Shown in pieces: positions 1 to 14,009 of a stretch of 14,404 bases of DNA. The notes beneath the pieces were generated by a model that was not told where the DNA came from, searched no databases, and saw only the letters and a list, made by a program, of their open reading frames with translations. The DNA is taken from the NCBI GenBank assembly GCA_043753995.1, contig JAYUVP010000029.1, forward strand, positions 1-14,404, given 5' to 3'. The position numbers and the translations under genes were made by a program. This stretch comes from Fibrobacterota bacterium (GTDB lineage: Bacteria > Fibrobacterota > Fibrobacteria > UBA11236). Position 1 is the first letter of the stretch. The number at the start of each line of letters is the position of its first letter.

Positions 1-63
1 ACCGTGCTATTTTATTGCCTATGAAAAATACAGTGTTTCGGTTTTCTCCGGGCGGCCTTGAGA

Positions 64-69
64 TATAAT
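64..69 (+). promoter_or_regulatory. Putative sigma70-type -10 element (TATAAT) for the first acyltransferase gene
   Basis: Perfect TATAAT at 64-69 in an AT-rich non-coding stretch about 45 nt upstream of the start codon. No convincing -35 hexamer was seen. Confidence 0.4.
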
Positions 70-114
70 ATGCATTTTCCTGAATTTCCCCTCGTTTAAC
101 ACAGGGGATCCGAA

Positions 115-1158
115 TTGAACATGGCGCAAGATCGACGGCTATTGGAGCTGGATGCTTTACGTGGCCTCGCGGCAATGTTTGTTGTTTTATTCCATTTTAC
201 CATGGGTCGGCCTCAAGCGGGGCTTGGATTTAACCTGGGTCTAACTGGGGTGGACCTGTTTTTTATTATCAGTGGATTTGTGATTTTTATGACCATTTCG
301 AAGGTTTCCACAACACGAGAATTTCTAGTGGGTCGAGCGGCGCGACTTTACCCCGCCTATTGGTTTTGTGTAACATTTACATTTTTTCTAATTTGTTTTA
401 CAAAAAATATTTATCACAATGAGCCTGGAATCACAACGGATCTGTTGTGGCAATATTTGATCAATCTTACCATGATCCAACAATTGTTGGGTGTGGAACA
501 CTTGGATGGTCCGTATTGGACTTTAACAATTGAGCTATTGTTTTACGCTTTTGTTGCGATAATTTATCGCATGAAAGGTATTCCCCATTTTTTAGTTATT
601 GGTAGCCTATTTCTTCTACTCATCCTTTGCTACCAGGCTATTCTTAAATTTCAATGGCCCTGGGGTTACGGTGTTTTGCATGGCCGATTCCCTCTTGTGA
701 ATCATTTCCCGCTTTTTTTTGCAGGAACTATTTTTTACACCATTTACCTCAATCAAAAAATCCGGTTTCGAGCTGGATTGTATGCACTTCTTGGGTTATG
801 CCTCATTGTACAGGCGTCTTTGTTTGACAAGGCCGGAAGAGCTCAGCATATCACTCCTAGCCAATATTTCTGGATGCTTTTGCTTTTCTTTATTCTGTTT
901 TCATTATTTGTTCACCGAAAACTTGGTTTCATTGTTTGTAAGCCAACTGTATTTTTGGGGGCTATCTCCTACCCGCTTTACTTAGTTCATCAGTTTCTTG
1001 GGGTAAGCATTATTTTGCCGGGGCTAATAAAAGTTCTCGGCATCAGTTATTGGATTTCCGTTTCTATTGCTCTTGTCGTTGTGCTTTTGATTGCCACCTT
1101 CGTTACTTATACGATTGAGGCTCCGGGAAGGCGACTCATCAGAAAGGCTTTTGCGTGA
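115..1158 (+). CDS. Acyltransferase family 3 (OafA/YrhL-like) integral-membrane O-acyltransferase, no SGNH domain
   Basis: Family motifs LDALRGLAA..VVLFH, GVDLFFIISGFVI, RAARLYPAY, YWTLTIELLFY, LGAISYPLYLVH and IEAP, with many hydrophobic segments. Start is either TTG at 115 (6 nt after AGGGGA at 103-108) or ATG at 121. Confidence 0.92.
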   Translation: MNMAQDRRLLELDALRGLAAMFVVLFHFTMGRPQAGLGFNLGLTGVDLFFIISGFVIFMTISKVSTTREFLVGRAARLYPAYWFCVTFTFFLICFTKNIYHNEPGITTDLLWQYLINLTMIQQLLGVEHLDGPYWTLTIELLFYAFVAIIYRMKGIPHFLVIGSLFLLLILCYQAILKFQWPWGYGVLHGRFPLVNHFPLFFAGTIFYTIYLNQKIRFRAGLYALLGLCLIVQASLFDKAGRAQHITPSQYFWMLLLFFILFSLFVHRKLGFIVCKPTVFLGAISYPLYLVHQFLGVSIILPGLIKVLGISYWISVSIALVVVLLIATFVTYTIEAPGRRLIRKAFA

Positions 1159-1170
1159 GGGCGCATCCAA

Positions 1171-2343
1171 TCAAAAGGCTTTAGCAAAGCGAACCATCGG
1201 TTTTTCAACGAAACGCCACGAAATCTCTCCTGCGCATATCGATATTCCGAGCCCACACAAAGCCACCGAAAAAAGGCTAACCTGTTCTCCAAAGCCAAAT
1301 TTTAATATGACTTTGTTTACAACGATGAGTATCGGAAAGTGCCACAAATATATTCCGAACGAGATTCGGCCAATATACCGCAAGATTCGAATATTTAGTG
1401 CTGTCCCAAAAAAATTGGACACTGGGCAAAATGCAAGGAATACTGATATGAAAAAGGGAAACCATGGAAAATAATATGGGATCGAGTTCAGGAAAAACAT
1501 TTCGGCTAGGTTTAAATCAATTCCTCCACCAAATAAAAATTTCAAAGTATTTGGAAACAGGGAAAGCAATATCCCAAAAACGGAAGCTGCACAAATAAGA
1601 TCCGCTTTTATGGATTTGGCAGTTGATGCTTCCTGTGAGCCGCGAATCCATTCTAAATAGATGCCCCGAGCAATGACTCCCATTAGAAAAATCGGAATCA
1701 TCGCCGAAGCCCCTTTTTGGAAAAACCAAAGCGAGCTATTGCGTTCAAGTTTAGTCATACCGGTATCAAAGTCATACGTGGCGCTCATTTGCAATAAGAG
1801 CGATTGCAGAAGCACGAAGAGCATGCAAATGACCAGAATGGCTGTGATTGATTTCGGTATGGAGCGAAGGCGTTTTGCTAAAACCATTACCGGTAGAAGT
1901 ATGAGATAGCATACCCATTCCATGGGAACCGACCATAGCGGTTCATTGTTTTCCCATAGCATGAAATAAGGTGGGAATATCCAATTCATAAACGTTAAGC
2001 CTAAAACTTCTCGGATCAGCCATTCCTTGTGATTGGATGCGAAGGCCGCAGTCAAGACTAAGCATATCGCGAAACCTGGCCAGATGCGTGCCCATCTTCT
2101 GATGATATAGGTTTTCCAATTCGGCAATGGACTTGCAAATTTCACCGAGTTCCAGAAGGGTCCAGCCAATAAAAAACCACTTAGAAGCAAAAAAACGGCA
2201 ACACCCGCCGAACCCTTATAGGCGAAAAACCGAATGAGGTTTGAGTCCGAACCCATGTGGCTAAGACAGACATGGTGACCGAATACCCATAGGCAAGCCA
2301 GGGCTCTGATTCCATCTAATCCCCTGATGTCGTCGGTTTTCAT
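1171..2343 (-). CDS. Acyltransferase family 3 (OafA/YrhL-like) integral-membrane O-acyltransferase, no SGNH domain
   Basis: Motifs LDGIRALACLWVFGHH, GVAVFLLLSGFLL, RRWARIWP, LWSVPMEWVCY, IGRISFGIYLWH and VEKP; polytopic hydrophobic protein of 390 aa. Confidence 0.92.
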   Translation of the reverse strand: MKTDDIRGLDGIRALACLWVFGHHVCLSHMGSDSNLIRFFAYKGSAGVAVFLLLSGFLLAGPFWNSVKFASPLPNWKTYIIRRWARIWPGFAICLVLTAAFASNHKEWLIREVLGLTFMNWIFPPYFMLWENNEPLWSVPMEWVCYLILLPVMVLAKRLRSIPKSITAILVICMLFVLLQSLLLQMSATYDFDTGMTKLERNSSLWFFQKGASAMIPIFLMGVIARGIYLEWIRGSQEASTAKSIKADLICAASVFGILLSLFPNTLKFLFGGGIDLNLAEMFFLNSIPYYFPWFPFFISVFLAFCPVSNFFGTALNIRILRYIGRISFGIYLWHFPILIVVNKVILKFGFGEQVSLFSVALCGLGISICAGEISWRFVEKPMVRFAKAF

Positions 2344-2398
2344 CGCATCTTCGAATTTGTAATTGTCACCGGCTTTTAACCGATTTCAATCCAGGTGG

Positions 2399-4333
2399 CT
2401 AGACCAAGGCCCCGATGAAATGGTGATGCAATAATTGCATCGATACCATGGACACCACGGCCATGTCGTCGCGCTCGCTCATGCGCCCTTCACCCGCAGC
2501 TACCTTGGTGGCCTTGGCTAATAGTTTTTCCGCCGTGGTTGGCTCGAAATAACCGGCCTTGCGTATGGCTTCGGGGCTGAGCACCTGGGCTGCTACATGA
2601 TTGCGGCCCGATAAGAAACATTGGCTAATGGGCGCGCGATAAGGTTGCTTGGGCCGATTCACGATTTCGGGCGGGAGCATGTCTTGGTAGGCCCGCTTCA
2701 AAATGTTTTTCTCGTCGAGAATGCGGATCTTGTGTTTGGGCGGTATGGTGGCCGCGAATTCGATGAGGCGATGATCCAAGAAGGGCACGCGCCCTTCAAC
2801 CGAATTGCCCATCATCATGCGATCGCCTTGAGACGAAAGCAAATAGCCCGACATGAAGAGGGACATTTCCAAATATTGCGCGCGGCATAGCGGATGCCAG
2901 CTTTTCATTTCGGGGTCGAGATATTTTTCCAAGTCGCCATAAAGCGATTCTTCCGAGCCCATGCTGGCGCGGAAATCGGCGGTGAATAGCGACTTCAATT
3001 GCGCGGTATTGGCCCAACGAATGGAATGCGAGTAATAAGGATTGCCGGTGTCGCTCAAATCCTTTTTGAAAAAAGCCGTCCAAAAGGCCGAGGCCATGCC
3101 GCCGCGATGGGCTTCGGGATGCAAGGAGCCGAGCAAGAGCGGACGCCATTTTGATTCGGGCTGGCGTGCCCAGAAGCGTCGCACCTTGTCTTCGCGGAAA
3201 ATGCTGTAGCCGCCAAAAATCTCGTCGGAACCTTCGCCCGTGAGCACCACCTTGATGCCCGTTTCGCGCACGAGCTTGGCGAGGCTGAGCAGAGGCGCCG
3301 GGGCGGTGCGTATCATCGGCTTTTCCGAGAGGCGAATCACATCGCTGAAGGCTGCGCCGATATCATTGTAGTCGACCTCGATGCTGCGATGATCGGTACC
3401 CAAGAAGTCGACCATTTGCTGCTGATAACCGCGCTCGTCGAAATTCGGATCTTTGAAAGCGACCGAAAAAGTGATGAGGTCGTGATTGTGGAATTTCTTC
3501 ACCAAGGCAGAAATGATGGACGAGTCGAGACCGCCGCTCAAATAAGCCGCCACCGGTACGTCAGCGCGTAATTGCAAGGTGGTGGCATCGTGCATCAAAT
3601 CACGGACGTCGGAAGCCCAGGCCTCGGCAGGACGGTCGGCATATTCTCCCGCACGGGGAAAACGGTGTTTCCAATAGGGATATTCTTTGCGACCCTCCGG
3701 ACCCAAGACGAGCATGTGTCCGGGAGGCAATTCCTTGACGCCTTGAAATACGGTGTCGGGAGGCACATTGGCCCAGAAGGTGAATACCTGGCTAATGCCA
3801 TGGGGATCGATGGCAGCCTTCATTCCCGGATAGGGGAATAAAGCCTTCATTTCCGAGGCGAAGAGCAAGGCTCCGTCCGGTGCTTGGGCATGGAAAAGCG
3901 GGCGTATGCCCACGCGATCGCGGCCTAGAATCAAGCGTTTGGTTTTGTCATCCCAAATGGCGATGGCGAATTGGCCGTTCAGGTGGGTGAATACATCCAA
4001 ACCCCAAGCCGCATAGCCATGCAATATGGTTTCGGTATCGCTATGCGATGCGAAGCGATAGCCCAACCCTTCGAGCTCTTGCCGCAATTCGATGTAATTG
4101 AAGATTTCGCCATTGAAAATCGTCACCACCGACCGATCGGCATTGAACATGGGCTGGGTGCCGCCGCTCAAATCGATAATAGATAGTCGCCTATGGCCAA
4201 AGCCCAGGCCGCTTTGATGATGATAACCTTCGCCGTCAGGCCCGCGATAAGCGAGCGCCCGAGTCATGCTTTGCAAGACTTCGAGCGGCGCTGTTTTGCC
4301 CTGGGGATGAAAAAAACCTGCGATGCCGCACAT
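2399..4333 (-). CDS. asnB: Asparagine synthase (glutamine-hydrolysing) family amidotransferase, copy 1; probably a glycan- or carrier-modifying paralogue
   Basis: N-terminal MCGIAG (Ntn catalytic Cys2), GHRRLSIIDL, FNGEIFNY, SDTE, RDRVGIRPL, PP-loop LSGGLDSS, LTGEGSDEIFGGY, GDRMMMGNSVEGRVPFLD and RPKQPY. Confidence 0.93.
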   Translation of the reverse strand: MCGIAGFFHPQGKTAPLEVLQSMTRALAYRGPDGEGYHHQSGLGFGHRRLSIIDLSGGTQPMFNADRSVVTIFNGEIFNYIELRQELEGLGYRFASHSDTETILHGYAAWGLDVFTHLNGQFAIAIWDDKTKRLILGRDRVGIRPLFHAQAPDGALLFASEMKALFPYPGMKAAIDPHGISQVFTFWANVPPDTVFQGVKELPPGHMLVLGPEGRKEYPYWKHRFPRAGEYADRPAEAWASDVRDLMHDATTLQLRADVPVAAYLSGGLDSSIISALVKKFHNHDLITFSVAFKDPNFDERGYQQQMVDFLGTDHRSIEVDYNDIGAAFSDVIRLSEKPMIRTAPAPLLSLAKLVRETGIKVVLTGEGSDEIFGGYSIFREDKVRRFWARQPESKWRPLLLGSLHPEAHRGGMASAFWTAFFKKDLSDTGNPYYSHSIRWANTAQLKSLFTADFRASMGSEESLYGDLEKYLDPEMKSWHPLCRAQYLEMSLFMSGYLLSSQGDRMMMGNSVEGRVPFLDHRLIEFAATIPPKHKIRILDEKNILKRAYQDMLPPEIVNRPKQPYRAPISQCFLSGRNHVAAQVLSPEAIRKAGYFEPTTAEKLLAKATKVAAGEGRMSERDDMAVVSMVSMQLLHHHFIGALV

Positions 4334-4355
4334 GATCGGTTAGCAGGTCTGAGAC

Positions 4356-5345
4356 TTAGTGCAGGATTTCAGGTATGGCTTCGATCAACTGAGGTCCCAA
4401 GTGCAAGTAGCGTGTGGTGGCGCGCTTGGTGTCTATGTCCTTGAAGACGAGTTTAATGGGGTCTACCGGCACGCCAAGGGTTTGGGCCACGACTTCTGGC
4501 GCTATGCCATGATTCTTGGCATAAAGGCACAAATCCATTTTGTCATAAGGCAACGAGAAATAAAACTCGTCTTGGCCTTGAGGAAGGGAATAGGTGTCCG
4601 TAGTCGGAGGGCGGCGGCGAATTTTTTCAGGCACGCCGAGGAATTCGGCTAGTTGATAAACCTGGGTCTTGTACAAATGGGCAATGGGTTTCAAATCAGC
4701 CGCGCCATCGCCGAGCTTGACGAAAAAACCTTGATCGTATTCGAGGCGATTGGGCGTTCCCGTCACGGCAAAATTCAAGCGATCCGCGTGATAGTATTCC
4801 ATCATTTTGCGAATGCGCTGTTTGAAATTGGTGGCGGCCACAATGCCGAGATAAGCATCTAGAGGCAAGCGCTTTTTAATGGTTTCGCCGCTCGGGGTCT
4901 GCGCGATTATGGAATAAAAATTGATGCCCTTGGTTTCCAAGAAATTGGGGAGCACGATCTTCATTTTCCAGCCCGCGCCGTATTCAGGAATGGCCTTTCG
5001 CACGGAATCATCCAGGCGGCTATAGCAGCCGACGGCGTCAAGCATGGGTGTAAGGATTTCCGCCTTGGAATCGATGCCGAAGTGATTGGAAATGCTCTGG
5101 CTTAGCGAGAGGGTTTCCGACCCGGAATCTCGTTCGGGCATATGCAGGCCAAAGACTCGATCTTTACCGACGGCATGAACGGCCAGAGCGCAGGTCACGG
5201 AGCTATCAATACCGCCGGAAAGGGCGACGATATAGCCGCGACGCTTGAAGCGGATCAAATTTTCTTGCATGACAGCCGCGATTTTCGCGACTTCTTTAGC
5301 GCAATCGATATCAAGAACTTTGGCGGAGAAGGCATTGGTTGACAT
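4356..5345 (-). CDS. nadE: NH3-dependent NAD+ synthetase (NadE)-like ATP pyrophosphatase/amide synthetase; atypical paralogue with an internal insertion
   Basis: PP-loop LSGGIDSS, GLHMPE, NFKQRIRK, GTPNRLE..GFFVKLGDG, PIAHLYKTQVYQLA and PPTTD; no glutaminase (nitrilase) domain. RBS-like AGGA overlaps the ACP stop codon. The family is clear, but the NAD synthetase function is not. Confidence 0.85.
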   Translation of the reverse strand: MSTNAFSAKVLDIDCAKEVAKIAAVMQENLIRFKRRGYIVALSGGIDSSVTCALAVHAVGKDRVFGLHMPERDSGSETLSLSQSISNHFGIDSKAEILTPMLDAVGCYSRLDDSVRKAIPEYGAGWKMKIVLPNFLETKGINFYSIIAQTPSGETIKKRLPLDAYLGIVAATNFKQRIRKMMEYYHADRLNFAVTGTPNRLEYDQGFFVKLGDGAADLKPIAHLYKTQVYQLAEFLGVPEKIRRRPPTTDTYSLPQGQDEFYFSLPYDKMDLCLYAKNHGIAPEVVAQTLGVPVDPIKLVFKDIDTKRATTRYLHLGPQLIEAIPEILH

Positions 5346-5352
5346 GGTAATC

Positions 5353-5616
5353 CTAGCCGTTCAGTTTCTTGACCACAAAGGCGGTCAGGTTATCGACCGA
5401 GTCGAAGTTCGCGGGAAGCAATTCTTGATCTTCGACTTCGATATTCCAAGTCTCTTGCAAGAAGTTCACGAATTCGAGCACGCCGGTGGAGTCGACCATG
5501 CCGGAGTCGAGAAAGGAGTCGCTGTCCTTCACATTGGCGCCTGATCCGCCAAGGAGAAAATTTTGAACCAGGAATCCCCGGATTTTGCCTCTAACTTCCA
5601 CTTCATTTGCCGACAT
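5353..5616 (-). CDS. Acyl/aminoacyl carrier protein (phosphopantetheine attachment at Ser43)
   Basis: 87-aa acidic protein with FLDSGMVDSTGVLEFV (GxxDS motif) and a C-terminal ELLPANFDSVD. Good RBS (AGGGAG, 5628-5623) 6 nt upstream of ATG. Confidence 0.9.
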   Translation of the reverse strand: MSANEVEVRGKIRGFLVQNFLLGGSGANVKDSDSFLDSGMVDSTGVLEFVNFLQETWNIEVEDQELLPANFDSVDNLTAFVVKKLNG

Positions 5617-5743
5617 GACCTTCTCCCTTGATTACGAATTCCACGACTTGAGAATGCACCAAAATAGTTCCTTGCTGCGACATTTGGATTTTCAAACAAG
5701 GGTTATGGTAACTCCTGGCAGGGTTGAAATCCTGTAAACATCT

Positions 5744-6973
5744 TCAAAGGGAAGGCGAACTGGGCGTCCCTCTTTGCGCCAAGATTTCACGAAAGTGTCC
5801 TTCCAGACCTTCGGCGACCGCATCCCAGGTATGCTTGGCGGCATAGGCCACCAGGTCTTGGGCGACCCAAGGCGTGGCGAAAGCCTGCTGCATCCATCGG
5901 GAAAAGGTCGCTGCATTCCGCTCGTCAGCCATGAGGCCTAAGTCGGGTCGGCAAAGGATTTCAGGTACGCCCCAAGTGCGGGTGGCCAAGACGGGCGTGC
6001 CGCAGGCGAGGGCTTCAAGGACGACATTGGGCCAGCCTTCCTTTTCGCTGGCCAGGCAGAAGAGGTCGGCTGCAGAATAATATCGGTAGAGTTCCTGGTT
6101 GAGTACGGCCCCCACAAAGCGCACGGAATCGGTGATACCCAAGGAGGCCGCTTGGGCGCGCAATTGCGGCTCGACATTGCCTTCCTCGCCGCCTTTGCCG
6201 ACAATAACCAAGGTCGTGTCGCGATAGCCCTTTTGATGCAATTCGGCCAAGGCTTGGATGAGGATGTCCACCCCTTTGCGGGCCACTAAGTGGCTGACGG
6301 AAAGCAAAATCTTGCCGGTGGCAGGTAGCCCCAAGGCTTGCCGGGCTTCGGGTTTGGGCAGAGGGAAAAACCGGCTGGCGTCGACGCCATTGGCCGAACG
6401 AAAGCCGGTAGACGCGGGAGCCCCCAGTTTGACAGCGCCATCTACCAAGGCTTGAGCCACGCCGAAATAGCGGTCGGCGTTTTGCAGGGCATAAACGATT
6501 TGCCGCCTTCGGACAGGATACTGTGGCAAGTCATTGATGTCATGGCCTCGCAAAGTGACGCATAGCGGCAATCCCAGCCACCGCTTCAAGAGGGCACCGG
6601 AAAACCCTTCGGGAAAGGCGAGATGACAGTCGATCAAGTCGAAGGACTTCATTTTGTTTACGGCGCGTAGCCAGCGATAGACTCGGAATGCCAAGGTCCA
6701 TCCTTCCAACGGTTTGGCGACGAAGGGCATCGAAAAGAATTTTGGGAAGAAGGTGGGATAGGCATTGCTTTCCGTTGTGAGCGGAATCGCATGTCGATTG
6801 CGATATCGGCCAATGAAATTTTCGCCAGGAAACCAGGGCACGGGCGAGACCACGGTCAAGTCCACTCGCTTTGCAAGTGCGTCCAGCCTTTGCTTGACGA
6901 ATTGTGCATGCACCGGCATGCGAGGATTGGGGAACATGGTGGAGATGGAAAGAACGCGCAGCCGTGAGGTCAT
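5744..6973 (-). CDS. GT4 family (GT-B fold) glycosyltransferase, TuaC-like
   Basis: LRVLSISTMFPNP N-terminus, VSPVPWFP, TLRGHDIN, NGVD, RKGVDILI and the EX7E motif EGWPNVVLEALACGTPV. Start moved to ATG at 6973 (MTSRLRVL) because the longer ORF to 7111 overlaps the divergent gene. Confidence 0.9.
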   Translation of the reverse strand: MTSRLRVLSISTMFPNPRMPVHAQFVKQRLDALAKRVDLTVVSPVPWFPGENFIGRYRNRHAIPLTTESNAYPTFFPKFFSMPFVAKPLEGWTLAFRVYRWLRAVNKMKSFDLIDCHLAFPEGFSGALLKRWLGLPLCVTLRGHDINDLPQYPVRRRQIVYALQNADRYFGVAQALVDGAVKLGAPASTGFRSANGVDASRFFPLPKPEARQALGLPATGKILLSVSHLVARKGVDILIQALAELHQKGYRDTTLVIVGKGGEEGNVEPQLRAQAASLGITDSVRFVGAVLNQELYRYYSAADLFCLASEKEGWPNVVLEALACGTPVLATRTWGVPEILCRPDLGLMADERNAATFSRWMQQAFATPWVAQDLVAYAAKHTWDAVAEGLEGHFREILAQRGTPSSPSL

Positions 6974-7009
6974 GTTTAGGTCGGTCGCCGATGGGGATAA
7001 GGGTTCGGC

Positions 7010-7022
7010 GCTATATTTTAGC
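7010..7022. promoter_or_regulatory. Putative bidirectional promoter core with overlapping -10-like elements (TATATT on +, TAAAAT on -)
   Basis: GCTATATTTTAGC is the most AT-rich patch in the 51-bp gap between two divergent starts (6973 and 7025) and is an imperfect palindrome. Confidence 0.45.
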
Positions 7023-7024
7023 TT

Positions 7025-8254
7025 ATGCCTTCCCCTCATGCCGGGCTTGGTCAATGCCTGTTCATTGTTTTCTCGGATGATTGGGGCCGGCATCCATCTA
7101 GCTGTCAACATCTTTTCCGTCGTATTTGCCCCTATTCCGAAGTGGTTTGGGTGAATACCGTCGGTTTGAGAACGCCGAAGTTAAGCCTTTACGACATCAA
7201 GCGCGCTTGGGAAATCCTGGGCGGTTGGCTCGGTCTCGGCAAAAGAAAACCCGCAGCCGTGAAGGATGAGCCCGAAAAGACCAAGGCCGATCCCGAAGTA
7301 TTGCGGCCCTTCATGTTACCCTGGTATCAATTTTCCTGGGTGGAAAACCTCAATCATGCCCTCATCGCGCGCGCTGTGCGCCGACGTGTGATTCAATCAC
7401 CAGGGAAAAAGCCACTCCTGGTCAGTACCCTGCCCATTATCCCCGAACTTTTCCGCCAAGATTACTGGTATAAGCGAGTGTATTACTGCGTCGATGATTT
7501 CACCACTTGGCCCGGCGTCTCGGGGGAGGTCATGAAAAGGCTTGAGGCCCGGACCTTGGCGCATTGCGATGTTTTAATCGCCACGTCTTCGGCTCTGCAA
7601 GAAAGCCGCGGCAAGGCCGTGACTACGTCCAACCTTTTGACCCATGGTGTTGACATCAACCATTTCGCTAAAGCCCGGGAAGCCGTCCCCGCGCCTGAAA
7701 TCAAAGCCTTACCCAGTCCCGTGGTTGGGCTTTTCGGATCCTTTGATCCGCGAATCGACGGCGACTTACTCAAACGCGTGGCCCTGGCCGTGGCGCCTGG
7801 CAGTGTTGTTGTGCTCGGCCCGGTGGATCGCAGCCTGAACGAGTTTCAAGGCGTCGCCAACCTGCATTTCCTCGGCGCAAAGCCTTATGCCGATTTGCCG
7901 GCTTTCGTCGCTGGCATGGCGGCTTTGATTCTGCCTTATCGCATCGATGCCTCGACCCACAATATCAATCCGCTCAAACTCAAGGAATATCTCGCCACGG
8001 GTTTGCCGGTCATCGCGACTCCCCTGCCGGAAATTCTTCGCTTGGGAGGAGATACCGTGGTGGCCCAAAGCGAGGATTTCGTGAGCGCGGTATTGAAGGC
8101 CCTGGCGTCCCCGCGTCCCGATTGGGCGAAACGTCAGGCTTTCTTATCCCGTGAAACTTGGGACGCGAAGGCTGAAACTTTTTGCCATTTCCTGCTCGAC
8201 CACGCGGATAATACCGTGGTGCCGGCATCGCATCCCTTGCGCGGAGGAGTTTGA
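7025..8254 (+). CDS. GT-B fold glycosyltransferase, TuaH-like / GT4-related
   Basis: FSDDWGRHPSSCQHL, VVWVNTVGLR, YYCVDDF..WPG, HGVDINHF and PLKLKEYLATGLPVIAT are typical of TuaH-like polysaccharide glycosyltransferases. Confidence 0.85.
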   Translation: MPSPHAGLGQCLFIVFSDDWGRHPSSCQHLFRRICPYSEVVWVNTVGLRTPKLSLYDIKRAWEILGGWLGLGKRKPAAVKDEPEKTKADPEVLRPFMLPWYQFSWVENLNHALIARAVRRRVIQSPGKKPLLVSTLPIIPELFRQDYWYKRVYYCVDDFTTWPGVSGEVMKRLEARTLAHCDVLIATSSALQESRGKAVTTSNLLTHGVDINHFAKAREAVPAPEIKALPSPVVGLFGSFDPRIDGDLLKRVALAVAPGSVVVLGPVDRSLNEFQGVANLHFLGAKPYADLPAFVAGMAALILPYRIDASTHNINPLKLKEYLATGLPVIATPLPEILRLGGDTVVAQSEDFVSAVLKALASPRPDWAKRQAFLSRETWDAKAETFCHFLLDHADNTVVPASHPLRGGV

Positions 8255-8255
8255 A

Positions 8256-10175
8256 ATGTGCGGTTTAGCAGGCATTATCGCCGCGGGCGGTGGAATTTCC
8301 GAAAGCGATCGCAAGCTTTGCCGCGCCATGACGCGCGCCATTGCCCATCGCGGCCCGGACGCAGAAGGCTTTTTCGATGCGCCGGGCTTGGCTTTCGGGC
8401 ATAGGCGCCTCAGTATTATCGACTTGGCTTCGGGGCAACAACCCATGATCAGCGCGGACGGTCGCTATGCCGTGGTATTCAATGGCGAGATTTACAACTA
8501 CTTGGATTTACGGCGCGAGCTAGAATCCCGTGGCGCGCAATTCCGGACCAAAAGCGATACTGAAGTTTTGCTGCACGGCTATGCCGCCTGGGGCGAAGCC
8601 TTGCCTAATAAGCTGCGCGGCATGTTCGCTTTCGTCGTGCAAGACCTACAAACCCGACATTCCTTGTCGGCGCGGGATCCCATCGGCAAAAAGCCCTTTT
8701 ATTTTCGCCGAGTAGGCGATCGGTTGATTTTCGCCAGTGAATTCCAGGCCTTGCTCTGTGATGAAACTTTGGCCCGCGATATCGATGACGAGGCCTTGAA
8801 TCTTTATTTGGCCCTCGGCTATGTGCCAGCGCCTTTGACCTTATATCGCGGCATCTCCAAGCTGGAAGCCGGCGAAGCCCTGTCGCTCACGCCCGAAGGT
8901 TTTCGCCGCTGGAAATATTGGCAGCCTTTGGCGAATCGCAAGTCGGCGCCCCGCCCCGAAGCCTGGGTGGACACCTTGGAGCAGCACTTGCTCGGCGCGG
9001 TGTCGCGGCGCCTCATGAGCGAGGTTCCTCTCGGGGCCATGCTCTCCGGCGGCATAGACAGCAATTTGGTGGTGGCCGAAATGGCGCGCACTTCGAGCAG
9101 CCAGGTGCGAACCTTTACCGCCGGTTTTGATTCTCGTAGCGCCTTGCCTGGCATACAAGACGAGCGCGCCATCGCCGCTTCGGCTGCGGCGCATTATGGC
9201 ACCGATCACCGTGCCATCGATTTGCCCTCCACGGCCTTTGACGAGCTCAAGCAACTCGCCGGGAATCTCGGCGAGCCGCTGGCCGATCCCTCCATATTGC
9301 CGACCTATCTCATTTGCCGCGAGGCCAAGCGTCATGTCACCGTGGCCTTGACCGGCGACGGCGGAGACGAGCCCTTCGGCGGATATTCTTTCCGTTATTT
9401 ACCGCATCTGCGCGAGCAGAGCTTGCGCGGAAAAGCTCCCGAAAGTCTTTTGCGGGCTGTCGCCAGGCCCTTGTCCCACCTTTGGCCCACGGGGGAAGGC
9501 GTTCCGCGCTCGCTGCGCTTGCAAACCGTTTGGCGTAACCTGGCGGTTTCCCCGCTGCAAGCTTTTTTGCTTGATCAAATGCCGCGCTGGCCCGAAAATC
9601 AGTCCAATCCCCGCTTGCAAAGCGGCATGTTGGCGGCCCTTTCCCGCATGGAAATTCTCGCCGCCGAGGCCGCCGCCGGCGGCTTGGACGAAATGAATCA
9701 GAAGCTGTGGATAGACACTCGCCTCTACATGTGCGAAAACGTCCTGGTCAAGGCGGACCGCATGAGCATGGCCGCGGGCTTGGAATTGCGCGCCCCTTTG
9801 CTCGACCAAGACTTGGTGGAATTCGCTTTTTCCCTGCCCCTGGAAGCCAAAATCCGTGCAGGGGAATGCAAATGGCTGCTGCGCAAATTAGCGGCGAACC
9901 GGGTTTGGCCGGAATTATTCAAGCAGCCGAAAACCGGCTTTTCCATACCCATAGACACTTATTTGCGAGGCGCATGGCGCCAGGGGGCTGAAGCGGTTTT
10001 GCTGAAGCCTGAGCCCTTGGAGGCTTTAGGGTTCACCCTTTCGGCGGTACAAAAGCTTTGGAATGAATTTCAATCTGGAGTCACCCGCCATACCATGCCG
10101 CTTTGGACGCTTTTGCAATTCTCTTTATGGTGGCATGGCGTGCATTGCCGACCCTCCAAGGACTTTTCGGTTTGA
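8256..10175 (+). CDS. asnB: Asparagine synthase (glutamine-hydrolysing) family amidotransferase, copy 2; EPS-associated type
   Basis: True start is ATG at 8256 (MCGLAG, catalytic Cys2) with strong RBS GGAGGAG at 8243-8249. Motifs HRGPD, GHRRLSIIDL, FNGEIYNY, SDTEV, LSGGIDSN, LTGDGGDE and KADRMSMAAGLELRAPLLD. Confidence 0.93.
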   Translation: MCGLAGIIAAGGGISESDRKLCRAMTRAIAHRGPDAEGFFDAPGLAFGHRRLSIIDLASGQQPMISADGRYAVVFNGEIYNYLDLRRELESRGAQFRTKSDTEVLLHGYAAWGEALPNKLRGMFAFVVQDLQTRHSLSARDPIGKKPFYFRRVGDRLIFASEFQALLCDETLARDIDDEALNLYLALGYVPAPLTLYRGISKLEAGEALSLTPEGFRRWKYWQPLANRKSAPRPEAWVDTLEQHLLGAVSRRLMSEVPLGAMLSGGIDSNLVVAEMARTSSSQVRTFTAGFDSRSALPGIQDERAIAASAAAHYGTDHRAIDLPSTAFDELKQLAGNLGEPLADPSILPTYLICREAKRHVTVALTGDGGDEPFGGYSFRYLPHLREQSLRGKAPESLLRAVARPLSHLWPTGEGVPRSLRLQTVWRNLAVSPLQAFLLDQMPRWPENQSNPRLQSGMLAALSRMEILAAEAAAGGLDEMNQKLWIDTRLYMCENVLVKADRMSMAAGLELRAPLLDQDLVEFAFSLPLEAKIRAGECKWLLRKLAANRVWPELFKQPKTGFSIPIDTYLRGAWRQGAEAVLLKPEPLEALGFTLSAVQKLWNEFQSGVTRHTMPLWTLLQFSLWWHGVHCRPSKDFSV

Positions 10176-11393: not shown

Positions 11394-14009
11394 CTAAGCC
11401 CAAGGGTCGCGGCGTTCACGCCACGCCTGCCAGAGATAAAGCGGCAGCTTCAGTCCCGCACTCCGAATCGTCCCCTTGATGCGTGCCAGAACCACGGTTT
11501 TCTGCGGAGTCACGACAAGACGTGGGCGGTAGGGCCCTTGCGGCTCGCTGAGGCCGAGATTCCATTTGGGACCTTCGCCGGTCCAGGCTTGCAGCACGGC
11601 AAAGCAATGCAAGGTAATCGCCAGGTTACGGGTGCAAAAGCGATCTTTCGCCTTCAGCAAGTCTTGGCTGGCGGCGTCCAGGAAGCGCTTGGCGGCCTGG
11701 GAAAAGCCCGCCGCCTCGTCAGCTGGGGCAAAGCGCGCGGCGAGGGCGAAAACGGCGGCCTTGCGTAAATCCTGGGCGGCCCAGGTTGAGGTGGGAAATT
11801 CCAATTCTTCGGGCTTACTCAGGTAGGGATATTCGTTTTTCGCCATCCAGCGGGCATAGCGCAATAGCACGGCCCTGGCGCGCTCCCAAGCCGGGGTGAT
11901 GCGGCCACCTTGGTGCAGGACTTCGAGATAGCGACCCACCATTTGCAAATACACCACATAGGACCAGCGATTTTCCCGGTGAAGCAAGCCCATGTTTTCG
12001 ACATCGTCCTCGGGAGATGAAACGACTTCTTGCACGCGTTCGGCCTTGGCCAGCCAGGTCTCGTCGCCATCGGCCAAATAGGCATCGAGCAAGGTATTGA
12101 GGCTATAGCCGGAACCGCGTCCGGGGCCTTGCCAATCGAGATCGCGCGTGCCCGTGGCGAGGCCCGTGGGACCTCCTGCTAGCCATTTCAAAGGCGTGCG
12201 GCGCCCGTCTTGCATGGCCGTCACCCAGCGCGCCAATTGCAAAACGGCATCGCGAGAGGCCGTGTCGCCGGTCAGCCAATAATGCAGCAAAAGCCCCGAA
12301 GAATAATTGTGCTCATTCGCGGGACCGCCACCGAAGCCGGCCGGCAGGGGTTTGCCTTCGAAAGCCAGGCGCGAATAAGTGCGATGCGTCGCTAGGCCAG
12401 CATGGGCATAATGCGCGGTATGCCAGAAATAGCCGCCATTGTAGGCCGCTTTGTCTTGCTGAGTGTGATAAAGGTCATGATGACGCACATGTTCGGCCAA
12501 CCGCAGGCCCAATTCGTCGAGTCCGGCGTCTCCCCTGGACAAACCCCCAGCGAGCAGCCCATACATCATGTCGTATTGATTATTGTAATGGGAAACCATG
12601 GGCCATTGGCCCTGATAATGCTCGGCTTCGTGATCGGCGGCCACCTCGCCGAAATTGCGCCAACCGTATTCATCCCAGCTTTCGCGCCGCGCTTGCAAAG
12701 CGCTTTTGCCCTCCAGCACCGCTCCGCCCAAGGCGGGAGGCAAGGTTTCGGCAGCTTGCAAAGAGAAAAAAGGCAAGGCTCGGCTAGCGGCGACCGTGGG
12801 GCCATCGGGCAGGGCATAAACTCCCGCTCGCGCGCCGGAAAGCAATTCCGGCATTTTATCCCACTCCGCAACGGAGTCCTGGGCCGCTATCCAAAACACG
12901 GCGCGGGTGCGCTCACCGCCTTGCAATTCATAGCGTTGGGCATCTTGCAAAGGCCAGGGCTCATAACGGATTTCATTTTGCTGCACTTCGAGGGACGAAG
13001 GAAAACGCTCCCAAAAATCTTCCGGCTGTATTTCCCATTTCCCGCCGTCTTCCCAGCGCATCACGGGATTGGCCCTGCGACCATCCAGGGTGTTTTGCTT
13101 CATGCCTTTTTCCAGCTTATAACCCTCGAAACGCACCGTGCTGTTTGAGTCGGCCCCGCGATGGGCTAAAGCCGACAAGGGGAGCACGGATTCCAGCCCG
13201 GAGGAGCCCTGCAGCAAGGAGGCTTGCTCTCCCAATTTGTGCCAGTCATGGCCGGGTTCGGCTTGTAACCAAGCTTGTCCGTTGCGTGGCCAGCGAAAGC
13301 CCAGGGCATGAAGATGCAGGGATCCTGCATCGCCCAAATCCCAGAGGCCGCCAGGGTGTTTGGCCGCCGAGGGATTCCACAAATTCACTTCGATGCGTAG
13401 CAGCGGCGTTTCGGGAAAGGAGGTAGCCTGCACGGTACCCCGTAAGCGGGAATGGCCGCCTTGGGCATCGGCGGCGAAGCAACCTTCCCAAATCAAGTCG
13501 GCGCGCTGTGCATTCGCCTCTAAGCGCACGGCATGGGGAAGAAAGGCGCTTTCGACGCCTAGGTTGAAGCGAATGAAAAGCCAGGGTTGATTTTGCGCCT
13601 CGCCTTCCTTTTGCAGGCATAGGCCTCGACGCCAATCCCATGCGATTTTTTGCTGGCCAAAGGTTACGCCGCCTTTTTTTTCGGCTTGATTCAACCAAGC
13701 CGTAGCGGGCCTAGCTGTGACGCTTGGCTCCGCCGGATGCATTTGCACGGCGACTAGGGCTCGCCCCCATTCTGCTGCGGCGATGCCATCGATTTGCGCC
13801 CATTGCCAACTTTGATCGGGCCAAAGGCGCAAGGGCTTGGCCGCCACGACGCTTTCACTGCCGTCGGCAGCGCGGATTTTCCAAAGCGGCGATCCGAAAA
13901 CCTGGCCGCGCGGCAAGGGTAGGCCACAGCGAAAGGGATGCATGCCGCTCCAGGGCAAGGCACGCAGGGTTTGCAAGGAGAGGTGACCAACGGTTTGCCA
14001 AGGACTCAT
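11394..14009 (-). CDS. Uncharacterised 871-aa protein, probable carbohydrate-active enzyme resembling the PcRGLX/YetA-like (exo-rhamnogalacturonan lyase-like) architecture
   Basis: Long ORF, co-directional with and 21 bp downstream of the hexapeptide acyltransferase. N-terminal GLPLPRG and motif-like blocks HPGGLWDLGD, EYGWRNFGE, SHYNNQYD, FWHTAHY, EHNYSSGLLLHYWLTGD and TWAAQDLRK. The CDS is confident; the fold assignment is from recall and tentative. Confidence 0.8.
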   Translation of the reverse strand: MSPWQTVGHLSLQTLRALPWSGMHPFRCGLPLPRGQVFGSPLWKIRAADGSESVVAAKPLRLWPDQSWQWAQIDGIAAAEWGRALVAVQMHPAEPSVTARPATAWLNQAEKKGGVTFGQQKIAWDWRRGLCLQKEGEAQNQPWLFIRFNLGVESAFLPHAVRLEANAQRADLIWEGCFAADAQGGHSRLRGTVQATSFPETPLLRIEVNLWNPSAAKHPGGLWDLGDAGSLHLHALGFRWPRNGQAWLQAEPGHDWHKLGEQASLLQGSSGLESVLPLSALAHRGADSNSTVRFEGYKLEKGMKQNTLDGRRANPVMRWEDGGKWEIQPEDFWERFPSSLEVQQNEIRYEPWPLQDAQRYELQGGERTRAVFWIAAQDSVAEWDKMPELLSGARAGVYALPDGPTVAASRALPFFSLQAAETLPPALGGAVLEGKSALQARRESWDEYGWRNFGEVAADHEAEHYQGQWPMVSHYNNQYDMMYGLLAGGLSRGDAGLDELGLRLAEHVRHHDLYHTQQDKAAYNGGYFWHTAHYAHAGLATHRTYSRLAFEGKPLPAGFGGGPANEHNYSSGLLLHYWLTGDTASRDAVLQLARWVTAMQDGRRTPLKWLAGGPTGLATGTRDLDWQGPGRGSGYSLNTLLDAYLADGDETWLAKAERVQEVVSSPEDDVENMGLLHRENRWSYVVYLQMVGRYLEVLHQGGRITPAWERARAVLLRYARWMAKNEYPYLSKPEELEFPTSTWAAQDLRKAAVFALAARFAPADEAAGFSQAAKRFLDAASQDLLKAKDRFCTRNLAITLHCFAVLQAWTGEGPKWNLGLSEPQGPYRPRLVVTPQKTVVLARIKGTIRSAGLKLPLYLWQAWRERRDPWA

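Follow-up and report, generated by a model that had tools for sequence, protein, structure and literature searches.

Why should a gene for a small acyl carrier protein (ACP) be packed together with genes resembling those for NAD and asparagine synthesis in the middle of a polysaccharide locus? This arrangement is found on contig C29 (JAYUVP010000029.1) of a Fibrobacterota bacterium (assembly GCA_043753995.1; 5.2 Mb in 356 contigs), the whole 14,404 bp of which were analyzed and are referred to here as the window. In the order of transcription from the minus strand, a GT4 glycosyltransferase gene is followed by genes for the ACP, a NadE-like PP-loop ATP pyrophosphatase, an AsnB-type amidotransferase, and an AT3 acyltransferase, with successive gaps of 127, 7, 22, and 55 bp. 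A first-pass annotation had described the ACP, NadE-like, and AsnB genes as three co-directional genes with gaps of 7 and 22 bp, lying between GT4 and AT3 on the same strand, and had proposed that they form a carrier-protein-dependent amidation cassette. The coordinates and the Pfam and NCBIfam families of the products bear out the description (Table 1). The proposal stands in part: gene linkage and gene fusions, described below, support carrier-protein chemistry, but the conserved unit contains a fourth gene, for an AMP-dependent ligase, which lies outside the window.

Linkage was examined in the best 80 loci of 568 NadE-like relatives confirmed in a species-genome collection, the record titles of which span at least 11 phyla; in a word-indexed search, matches of the same PRK00876 type numbered at least 8000 at an E value of 1e-3. 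The counts were obtained by running phmmer with the window proteins and the ligase of the source genome over all open reading frames (ORFs) of the 80 loci, and do not rest on the greedy ORF picker, which picks wrong antisense ORFs in high-GC loci. Ligases were counted at a minimum of 80 bits and 300 aa, a threshold of 250 bits against the source-genome ligase being one that undercounts them (23/43). Among the 43 of the 80 loci that have at least 5 kb on either side of the NadE-like gene, an AsnB-type gene lies within 5 kb of that gene in 37, an ACP homologue in 35, and a gene for an AMP-dependent ligase in 36. The full set of partners is present within 5 kb in 31 of these 43 full-flank loci, mostly on the same strand, and anywhere in the ±8-kb locus in 34; the loci were selected by NadE-like similarity and kin genomes are non-independent, so that the counts are descriptive and not a test. 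The adjacency of the ACP, NadE-like, and AsnB-type genes is more than chance, genes of these three families being found together in the majority of the 80 loci. Because the ligase travels with these three genes in most full-flank loci, the conserved unit is one of four genes, for an AMP-dependent ligase, a small ACP, an AsnB-type enzyme, and a NadE-like enzyme. Surveying the neighborhoods of homologues of the 329-aa NadE-like protein thus failed to refute the proposed association, the linkage to ACP and AsnB being conserved across phyla.

Fusion proteins connect the same families. An exhaustive search of representative proteins with the NadE-like sequence gave 7125 matches at E ≤ 1e-3 and 367 at E ≤ 1e-30. 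By Pfam, BLAST, and cluster look-up, P0125, which is 849 aa long and has three members, each on a contig of its own (14–38 kb), joins a ligase to a NadE-like enzyme, and fragments of such a fusion are seen in P0142 and P0206. P0123, from one 2.5-kb contig, combines a NadE-like enzyme with an ACPS phosphopantetheinyl transferase, and P0160, P0228, and P0257 combine it with GATase/AsnB domains. P0130 (510 aa), a metagenome protein from one 50-kb contig, consists of a NadE-like part with its SGGIDS motif intact, followed by AMP-binding_C and PP-binding domains, the latter with the LGGHSL carrier motif of nonribosomal peptide synthetases (NRPSs). From its sequence, P0130 looks like an NRPS-like module with a PP-loop enzyme where the adenylation core would be. 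The domain C-terminal to its NadE-like part, an NRPS-type C-terminal subdomain of an adenylation (A) domain that precedes the peptidyl carrier protein (PCP), has a Lys replaced at what we take to be the A10 position. Some of the fusions that occur on one contig only could be artefacts of read-through between neighboring genes. As a group, though, the fusions link the NadE-like enzyme with carrier-protein chemistry in a more direct way than the neighborhood alone.

These observations bear on an alternative in which the genes have separate roles. WbpS/WbtH-type AsnB paralogues are thought to amidate uronic acid carboxyls, and the AsnB-type enzyme might likewise amidate the uronic acids of the polymer, the ACP and ligase supplying an acyl substituent and the NadE-like enzyme serving a third role. 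UDP-glucose dehydrogenase (UGDH) genes near the module in 11 loci, the second AsnB paralogue in the window (8256–10175), and the occurrence of loci with NadE-like and AsnB-type genes but no ACP or ligase would all suit such a division of labor. It sits badly, however, with the NadE-like/AsnB fusions, with the fusions of NadE-like enzymes to a ligase, phosphopantetheinyl transferase, or PCP, with the four-gene co-occurrence in 31 of 43 loci, and with the fact that the same four genes stand alone, without exopolysaccharide genes, in Sinorhizobium meliloti (see below). We therefore consider separate roles improbable.

The NadE-like protein scores 150.5 bits against Pfam NAD_synthase (PF02540; cut-off 21) and 501.4 bits against NCBIfam NF002048/PRK00876 (cut-off 313), with a PP-loop of the sequence SGGIDS at residues 43–48. 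Its AF2 model (pLDDT 90, pTM 0.89) finds NadE enzymes exclusively among the top Foldseek matches, namely short NH3-dependent NadEs (2e18, 1xng) and the Francisella nicotinamide mononucleotide (NMN) synthetase 3fiu, with a TMt of 0.83–0.88 at about 20% sequence identity. Across 46 family members, the PP-loop, K175, R177, R179, T197, E202, K210, D213, D217, K226, and K307 are invariant, and in a direct alignment all of these are common to Escherichia coli NadE, with which overall identity is 27%. The roles of individual motif residues would be those described in the NadE literature, and with this set of residues the protein is predicted to be competent for catalysis as a PP-loop enzyme that adenylates its substrate. 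Compared with E. coli NadE, it has an insertion of about 45 aa at about residues 121–166, which is conserved in the family: P151 and R159 do not vary, and K129, G153, and Y165 are almost invariant.

Such conservation raises the question of whether the protein is simply a NAD synthetase. We think not. A separate 672-aa protein with CN_hydrolase and NAD_synthase domains is encoded on contig C44 of the source genome, and because of this the NadE-like gene is an extra copy and not the housekeeping NAD synthetase of the genome; the search for a separate nadE, which might have undone the amidation proposal, thus turned up a long Gln-dependent NadE. We also searched 30 relatives, 18 from the same family and 12 from the same order or class but other families. 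A PRK00876-type gene is present in 7 of the 18 same-family genomes and in none of the 12 others, so that 8 of 31 genomes, including the source genome, have one over the cut-off. Weak matches in long frames, like the long NadE of the source genome, were seen in five of the seven carriers (G002, G010, G012, G013, and G015; frames of 670–840 aa) and in 9 of the 23 relatives without a PRK00876-type gene (576–811 aa); these frames of 576–840 aa look like glutaminase-fused long NadEs. Identity to the window protein is 60–70% within the family and 55–68% for copies from other phyla. Because same-family copies are no closer than those of other phyla, the gene behaves as an accessory one, and it has probably been exchanged between lineages.

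That the gene encodes a true NAD synthetase of the NH3-dependent kind, a second one kept with the cassette for regulatory or ammonia-supply reasons, appears very improbable to us. Its score over the cut-off of PRK00876, which NCBIfam names "NAD(+) synthase," its NadE fold, and the conservation of the motif residues common with E. coli NadE would agree with that function. They are outweighed by the patchy distribution of an accessory copy beside a housekeeping long NadE, the low identity to solved NadEs and to E. coli NadE together with the conserved insertion, and the linkage to and fusion with carrier-protein genes. The substrate is probably one other than nicotinic acid adenine dinucleotide (NaAD). 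Complex prediction lends weak support to a contact with the carrier protein: two NadE-like chains with one ACP reached a score of 0.50 (runs 0.53, 0.50, and 0.38), as against 0.00 for the best of three controls, with at least 88% contact agreement and a partner pLDDT of at least 80. In the calibration of this score, 116 of the 157 solved complexes attained the mark, as did 2 of the 215 mismatched pairs, but at ≤0.60 lie only 18 of the 157 solved complexes and both mismatches that passed, and our prediction differs from the calibration set in using its own alignments and a 2+1 chain layout.

The AsnB-type protein begins with MCGIAG, which places the nucleophile at Cys2, and contains a PP-loop of its own, SGGLDS. 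It scores 154.6 bits against GATase_7, 300.6 against Asn_synthase, and 512.7 against TIGR01536 (cut-off 267.1); against the XrtA/PEP-CTERM amidotransferase model TIGR03108, it reaches 455.4 bits and remains under the cut-off of 816.9. Orthologues of 60–69% identity are present in the cassettes of six same-family genomes.

Where, then, is the ligase? The source genome has one orthologue of the cassette ligase, on the minus strand of the 8.3-kb contig C266 (2624–4186 of locus L090). Compared with the cassette ligase of L038, the closest locus, this protein scores 817 bits, and it has 69–70% identity to the ligases within the cassettes of three same-family genomes. Its gene is flanked on one side by a GT4 gene and a 431-aa ORF and on the other by a Wzm/Wzt-type ABC exporter. 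All seven relatives with a NadE-like gene have the ligase inside the cassette, about 2 kb or less from the ACP and NadE-like genes. Unless C29 and C266 are neighbors, the source genome contains a rearranged variant of the cassette; particular to this instance are the unlinked ligase, the absence of a methyltransferase, and a flanking pair of low-GC AT3 genes. In an alignment of 53 ligases, the stretch that we take to be the A4 motif reads VLPFxYxYGL, without a conserved Asp, and an amino acid substrate is not confirmed by it.

The 431-aa ORF on C266 (L090 4193–5488, minus strand) sits 6 bp upstream of the ligase. It matches no Pfam or NCBIfam family and has no tblastn homologue in 88 related loci, but the nearest ESM Atlas clusters are of hypothetical proteins, 53–78% of the members of which contain Transglut_core (score 0.97). 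This makes its product an intriguing lead, as a candidate transglutaminase-like partner for a pathway that makes carboxamides.

The four-gene module has a relative in S. meliloti. A tblastn search of plasmids with the NadE-like protein matched 117 records, for the most part pSymB-type replicons of Sinorhizobium/Ensifer, with an identity of about 58%. In one of these, CP140937.1 (S. meliloti pSymB; L091), genes are annotated in the order acyl carrier protein, class I adenylate-forming enzyme, nadE; identities to the window proteins are 58% for NadE, 46% for AsnB, and 35% for the ACP, and the ligase is 47% identical to that on C266. The window ACP matches the region of the pSymB ACP SMb20651 with an E value of 1e-17, and the pair D42-S43 is invariant across 52 aligned carrier protein homologues. 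By sequence, the window cassette is homologous to the pSymB operon asnB-SMb20651-SMb20650-nadE, an operon reportedly described by Ramos-Vega et al. in 2009 (Microbiology 155:257) as asnB-smb20651-smb20650-nadE. The AsnB-like gene of CP140937.1, upstream of the ACP gene at 5209–7073, is missing from the gene table, and its matches fall in two frames, 5215–5502 and 5490–7073; it may be frameshifted in that strain.

Our full-text literature search by family names found no description of the module; the S. meliloti operon surfaced under the name SMb20651. The first-pass annotation had likewise stated that no biochemical description of the module was known, which needs amending in part, for two proteins of the homologous operon, the ACP SMb20651 and the ligase SMb20650, have been handled biochemically. 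According to excerpts of a secondary source, smb20650 is co-transcribed with the ACP gene, SMb20651 can be obtained as holo- and acyl-ACP, expression of smb20650 in E. coli making holo-SMb20651 leads to acylated SMb20651, and SMb20650 is unable to replace FadD for oleate use (PMC7232532). An excerpt of a further paper describes the function of SMb20651 as still in need of investigation (PMC5686131).

The surroundings of the module point to exopolysaccharides. Most of the 80 loci are of exopolysaccharide type, with PGT, Wza, tyrosine kinase, exosortase, deacetylase, UGDH, DegT, and flippase genes. In Desulfobacterota, the module occurs in XrtA loci, where a deacetylase of XrtA type and a FemAB-like GNAT accompany it, and in Planctomycetota it lies beside a polysaccharide deacetylase and a 350-aa protein without known function. 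Five verrucomicrobial loci (L011, L013, L023, L032, and L037) have genes for FdtA and a DegT aminotransferase directly after the module; a hexapeptide transferase gene lies upstream of it in L013, L023, and L037, and the contigs of L011 and L032 end there. This arrangement fits N-acylation of an amino sugar, a 3-amino-3,6-dideoxyhexose. In six loci, a methyltransferase travels with the ligase, and the NPPY motif, which marks methylation of amide or amino nitrogen, is present in five of them, the sixth being cut by the contig end. No cassette-type NPPY methyltransferase was found in the source genome, where the best tblastn match, on C87, is 33% identical. Two Desulfobacterales loci, L052 and L059, lack AsnB within 5 kb and contain two NadE-like paralogues in tandem (at 6654–7619 and 8004–8984 in L052), the second having 40% identity to the window protein; NadE-like and AsnB-type enzymes would thus appear to be interchangeable amidating steps.

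In the reading that we prefer, the module is a single pathway that builds an amide-bearing acyl group on the ACP for delivery to exopolysaccharide; we judge the chances that this is correct to be about even. The ligase, here the unlinked one on C266, would adenylate a carboxylic acid and link it as a thioester to holo-ACP, a step known, from the excerpts mentioned, for the S. meliloti homologues only. The acid would carry more than one carboxylate. The AsnB-type enzyme, with Gln as the nitrogen donor, and the NadE-like enzyme, probably with NH3, would form amides, each by adenylating and amidating a carboxylate, or a carbonyl, still left on the acid, whether tethered or pre-loaded; alternatively, the two might act successively on one carbon. 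In the end, a locus- or clade-specific acyltransferase would transfer this acyl group, with its amide, from the carrier protein onto a sugar of the exopolysaccharide for which the surrounding GT4 and PEP-CTERM-type genes are responsible. Two equivalent amidation steps and an amide product are suggested because a tandem NadE-like paralogue takes the usual place of AsnB in L052 and L059, because five of the six ligase-linked methyltransferases have the NPPY motif, and because FdtA and DegT follow the module in the five verrucomicrobial loci.

For the last step, the window offers no candidate transferases other than the hexapeptide transferase and the AT3 pair. The first-pass annotation had suggested installation through the adjacent AT3, which the survey does not support: AT3 is specific to the window and absent from the neighbor clusters found in at least three of the 80 loci, and the AT3 genes have a GC content of 41–44% (41.3% for 115–1158, 43.5% for 1171–2343), compared with 51–55% for the cassette and 53.9% for the genome. 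The AT3 pair is probably a later insertion at the operon end, and a role of AT3 in transfer is possible but unsupported.

A different product would do without a glycan acceptor. The ligase might load a fatty or other acid onto the ACP to give an amide-bearing lipid or small molecule, the polysaccharide locus being incidental or reflecting co-regulation. This would account for the S. meliloti operon, the neighbors of which in CP140937.1 include minCDE, ABC transporter, and two-component genes and which lies outside any exopolysaccharide locus, and also for the acylation of SMb20651 with C12:0 or C18:0 in E. coli that Ramos-Vega et al. are said to have observed in 2009. We nevertheless regard a non-glycan product as unlikely, given that a plain fatty acyl thioester has no free carboxylate for two amidating enzymes and that most of the 80 loci are of exopolysaccharide type; the failure of SMb20650 to complement fadD for oleate, stated in the excerpts of PMC7232532, points the same way.

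Several observations nonetheless weigh against a single amidation pathway ending on a glycan. The four genes do not adjoin in the source genome, where AsnB, ACP, and NadE-like lie on C29 and the ligase on C266. Elsewhere, the module is incomplete: L049, L057, and L085 have only NadE-like and AsnB-type genes, with no ACP or ligase within 8 kb, L033, L052, L065, and L074 are without AsnB within 5 kb, and L082 is without AsnB, ACP, and ligase. The ACP is the weakest family call, with 17.6 bits against Pfam PP-binding (PF00550; cut-off 20.8), and it falls below the cut-off of all NCBIfam ACP models (ACP_for_OlsHI, 40.8 bits). Essentially every motif residue common with E. coli NadE is kept in the NadE-like protein, so that its sequence is compatible with NaAD amidation. 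The C12:0 or C18:0 acylation reported for SMb20651 is more easily reconciled with a plain fatty acid than with a polycarboxylic acid, and because the S. meliloti operon is outside a polysaccharide locus, a glycan acceptor is not universal. The AT3 genes, with their low GC content, resemble a later insertion.

A bolder form of the single-pathway reading can be put forward tentatively, as a possibility about which we remain doubtful. QueC-type PP-loop enzymes convert a carboxylate via an amide to a nitrile. By analogy, the NadE-like enzyme might be the first PP-loop amidoligase to act on a carrier-protein-tethered substrate, and together with AsnB it might set two nitrogens on an ACP-bound polycarboxylic acid, or take a carboxylate through an amide to an amidine or nitrile. 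The result would be a hitherto undescribed substituent of exopolysaccharides, an acyl group rich in amides, in more than 10 phyla, and in some lineages it would be N-methylated by the NPPY methyltransferase.

Table 1. Positions of the cassette genes and of further features in the window
Feature	Coordinates	Strand	Remarks
Small carrier protein (ACP), 87 aa	5353–5616	-	DSTG motif, predicted 4'-phosphopantetheine site Ser43
NadE-like PP-loop ATP pyrophosphatase, 329 aa, PRK00876 type	4356–5345	-	NF002048 above cut-off
AsnB-type glutamine-dependent amidotransferase, 644 aa	2399–4333	-	GATase_7, GATase_6, Asn_synthase domains
GT4 glycosyltransferase upstream of ACP gene	5744–7111	-	Glycos_transf_1 123.8 bits
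AT3 acyltransferase downstream of AsnB-type gene	1171–2343	-	Acyl_transf_3 117.3 bits
Second AT3 acyltransferase, convergent with first	115–1158	+	Acyl_transf_3 98.5 bits
Second AsnB paralogue	8256–10175 (ORF listed from GTG at 8151)		Likely start, MCG at 8256
871-aa ORF, no family	11394–14009	-	
GT gene	7025–8254	+	Divergent from GT4 5744–7111

The remainder of the window also encodes polysaccharide machinery, comprising the second AT3, two further GT genes, the second AsnB paralogue, the 871-aa ORF, and a hexapeptide acetyltransferase. One of the further GT genes is a PEP-CTERM-type stp1 (TIGR03087; 383.9 bits, NCBIfam cut-off 316.65). The single exosortase of the source genome is encoded on contig C224, outside the window. 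The GT4 upstream of the ACP gene is probably in the same transcription unit as the cassette; it is context, outside the conserved module. Scanning of positions 1–7400 gave 6 promoter-like sites (shuffle mean 7.1) and 14 terminator-like sites (shuffle mean 10.2), and the operon limits are undefined because neither signal rises above the shuffled controls.

Three further observations concern the gene calls. The longest ORFs of the GT4 gene and of the divergent GT gene share 87 bp at the 5' end of each, so that one or both must truly start further in, which would leave a short divergent promoter region. The likely start of the second AsnB paralogue, 2 bp after the GT stop at 8254, was assigned because both the profile match and the MCGLAG nucleophile begin at residue 36 of the ORF listed from 8151. 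This paralogue resembles TIGR03108 but stays under its cut-off (535.6 bits against 816.9). The 871-aa ORF has no Pfam or NCBIfam match, and a simple Kyte-Doolittle scan found no hydrophobic segment in it.

The window cassette is a further copy of a widespread, already recorded, uncharacterized module and introduces no new principle. It shows that an unlinked ligase and different transferases are both compatible with the kit. PRK00876-type "NAD(+) synthase" genes are very common and probably mis-annotated, and, if so, metabolic reconstructions that count them as NAD synthesis are wrong. The four-gene kit is among the more widespread carrier-protein systems without a known product, and solving it would give a new modification of surface polymers (or lipids) and a new class of PP-loop substrate.

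Comparison with known systems places the module more precisely. The S. meliloti pSymB operon is built of the same four homologous families, co-directional and tightly packed, and is likewise uncharacterized in function; it differs in its order, AsnB-ACP-ligase-NadE as opposed to ACP-NadE-AsnB without a ligase in the window, and in lying outside a polysaccharide locus, whereas the window copy lies within one that has GT4 and PEP-CTERM-type genes. Short NH3-dependent NadEs (2e18, 1xng, 3p52) and the NMN synthetase 3fiu have in common with the window enzyme the NadE fold, the SGGxDS PP-loop, and the downstream motif residues, and presumably also carboxylate adenylation followed by attack of a nitrogen nucleophile; in contrast, identity is only about 20%, and the window type has the insertion of about 45 aa, is accessory, and is linked or fused to carrier proteins.

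The set associated with exosortase A (XrtA) consists of the ligase TIGR03098, an ACP, the pyridoxal phosphate (PLP)-dependent decarboxylase TIGR03099, and two hydrolases. It resembles the module in combining a related ligase with a small ACP within PEP-CTERM exopolysaccharide loci, and is also uncharacterized. Module ligases, however, stay under the TIGR03098 cut-off of 592.35 bits (414.7 for the C266 ligase, for which this is the nearest NCBIfam model, and 497.8 for that of L062), and their partners are AsnB and NadE-like enzymes rather than a decarboxylase and hydrolases. OxyD is an AsnB homologue that takes part in ACP-tethered amidation to give the malonamyl starter of oxytetracycline, and DltA/DltC serve the D-alanylation of teichoic acids. 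Compared by logic and not by sequence, these systems would supply the separate steps proposed here, in that a ligase loads a carrier, a diacid held as a thioester receives its amide from an AsnB-type enzyme, and transfer to a polymer follows; neither of them, however, includes a NadE-like enzyme.

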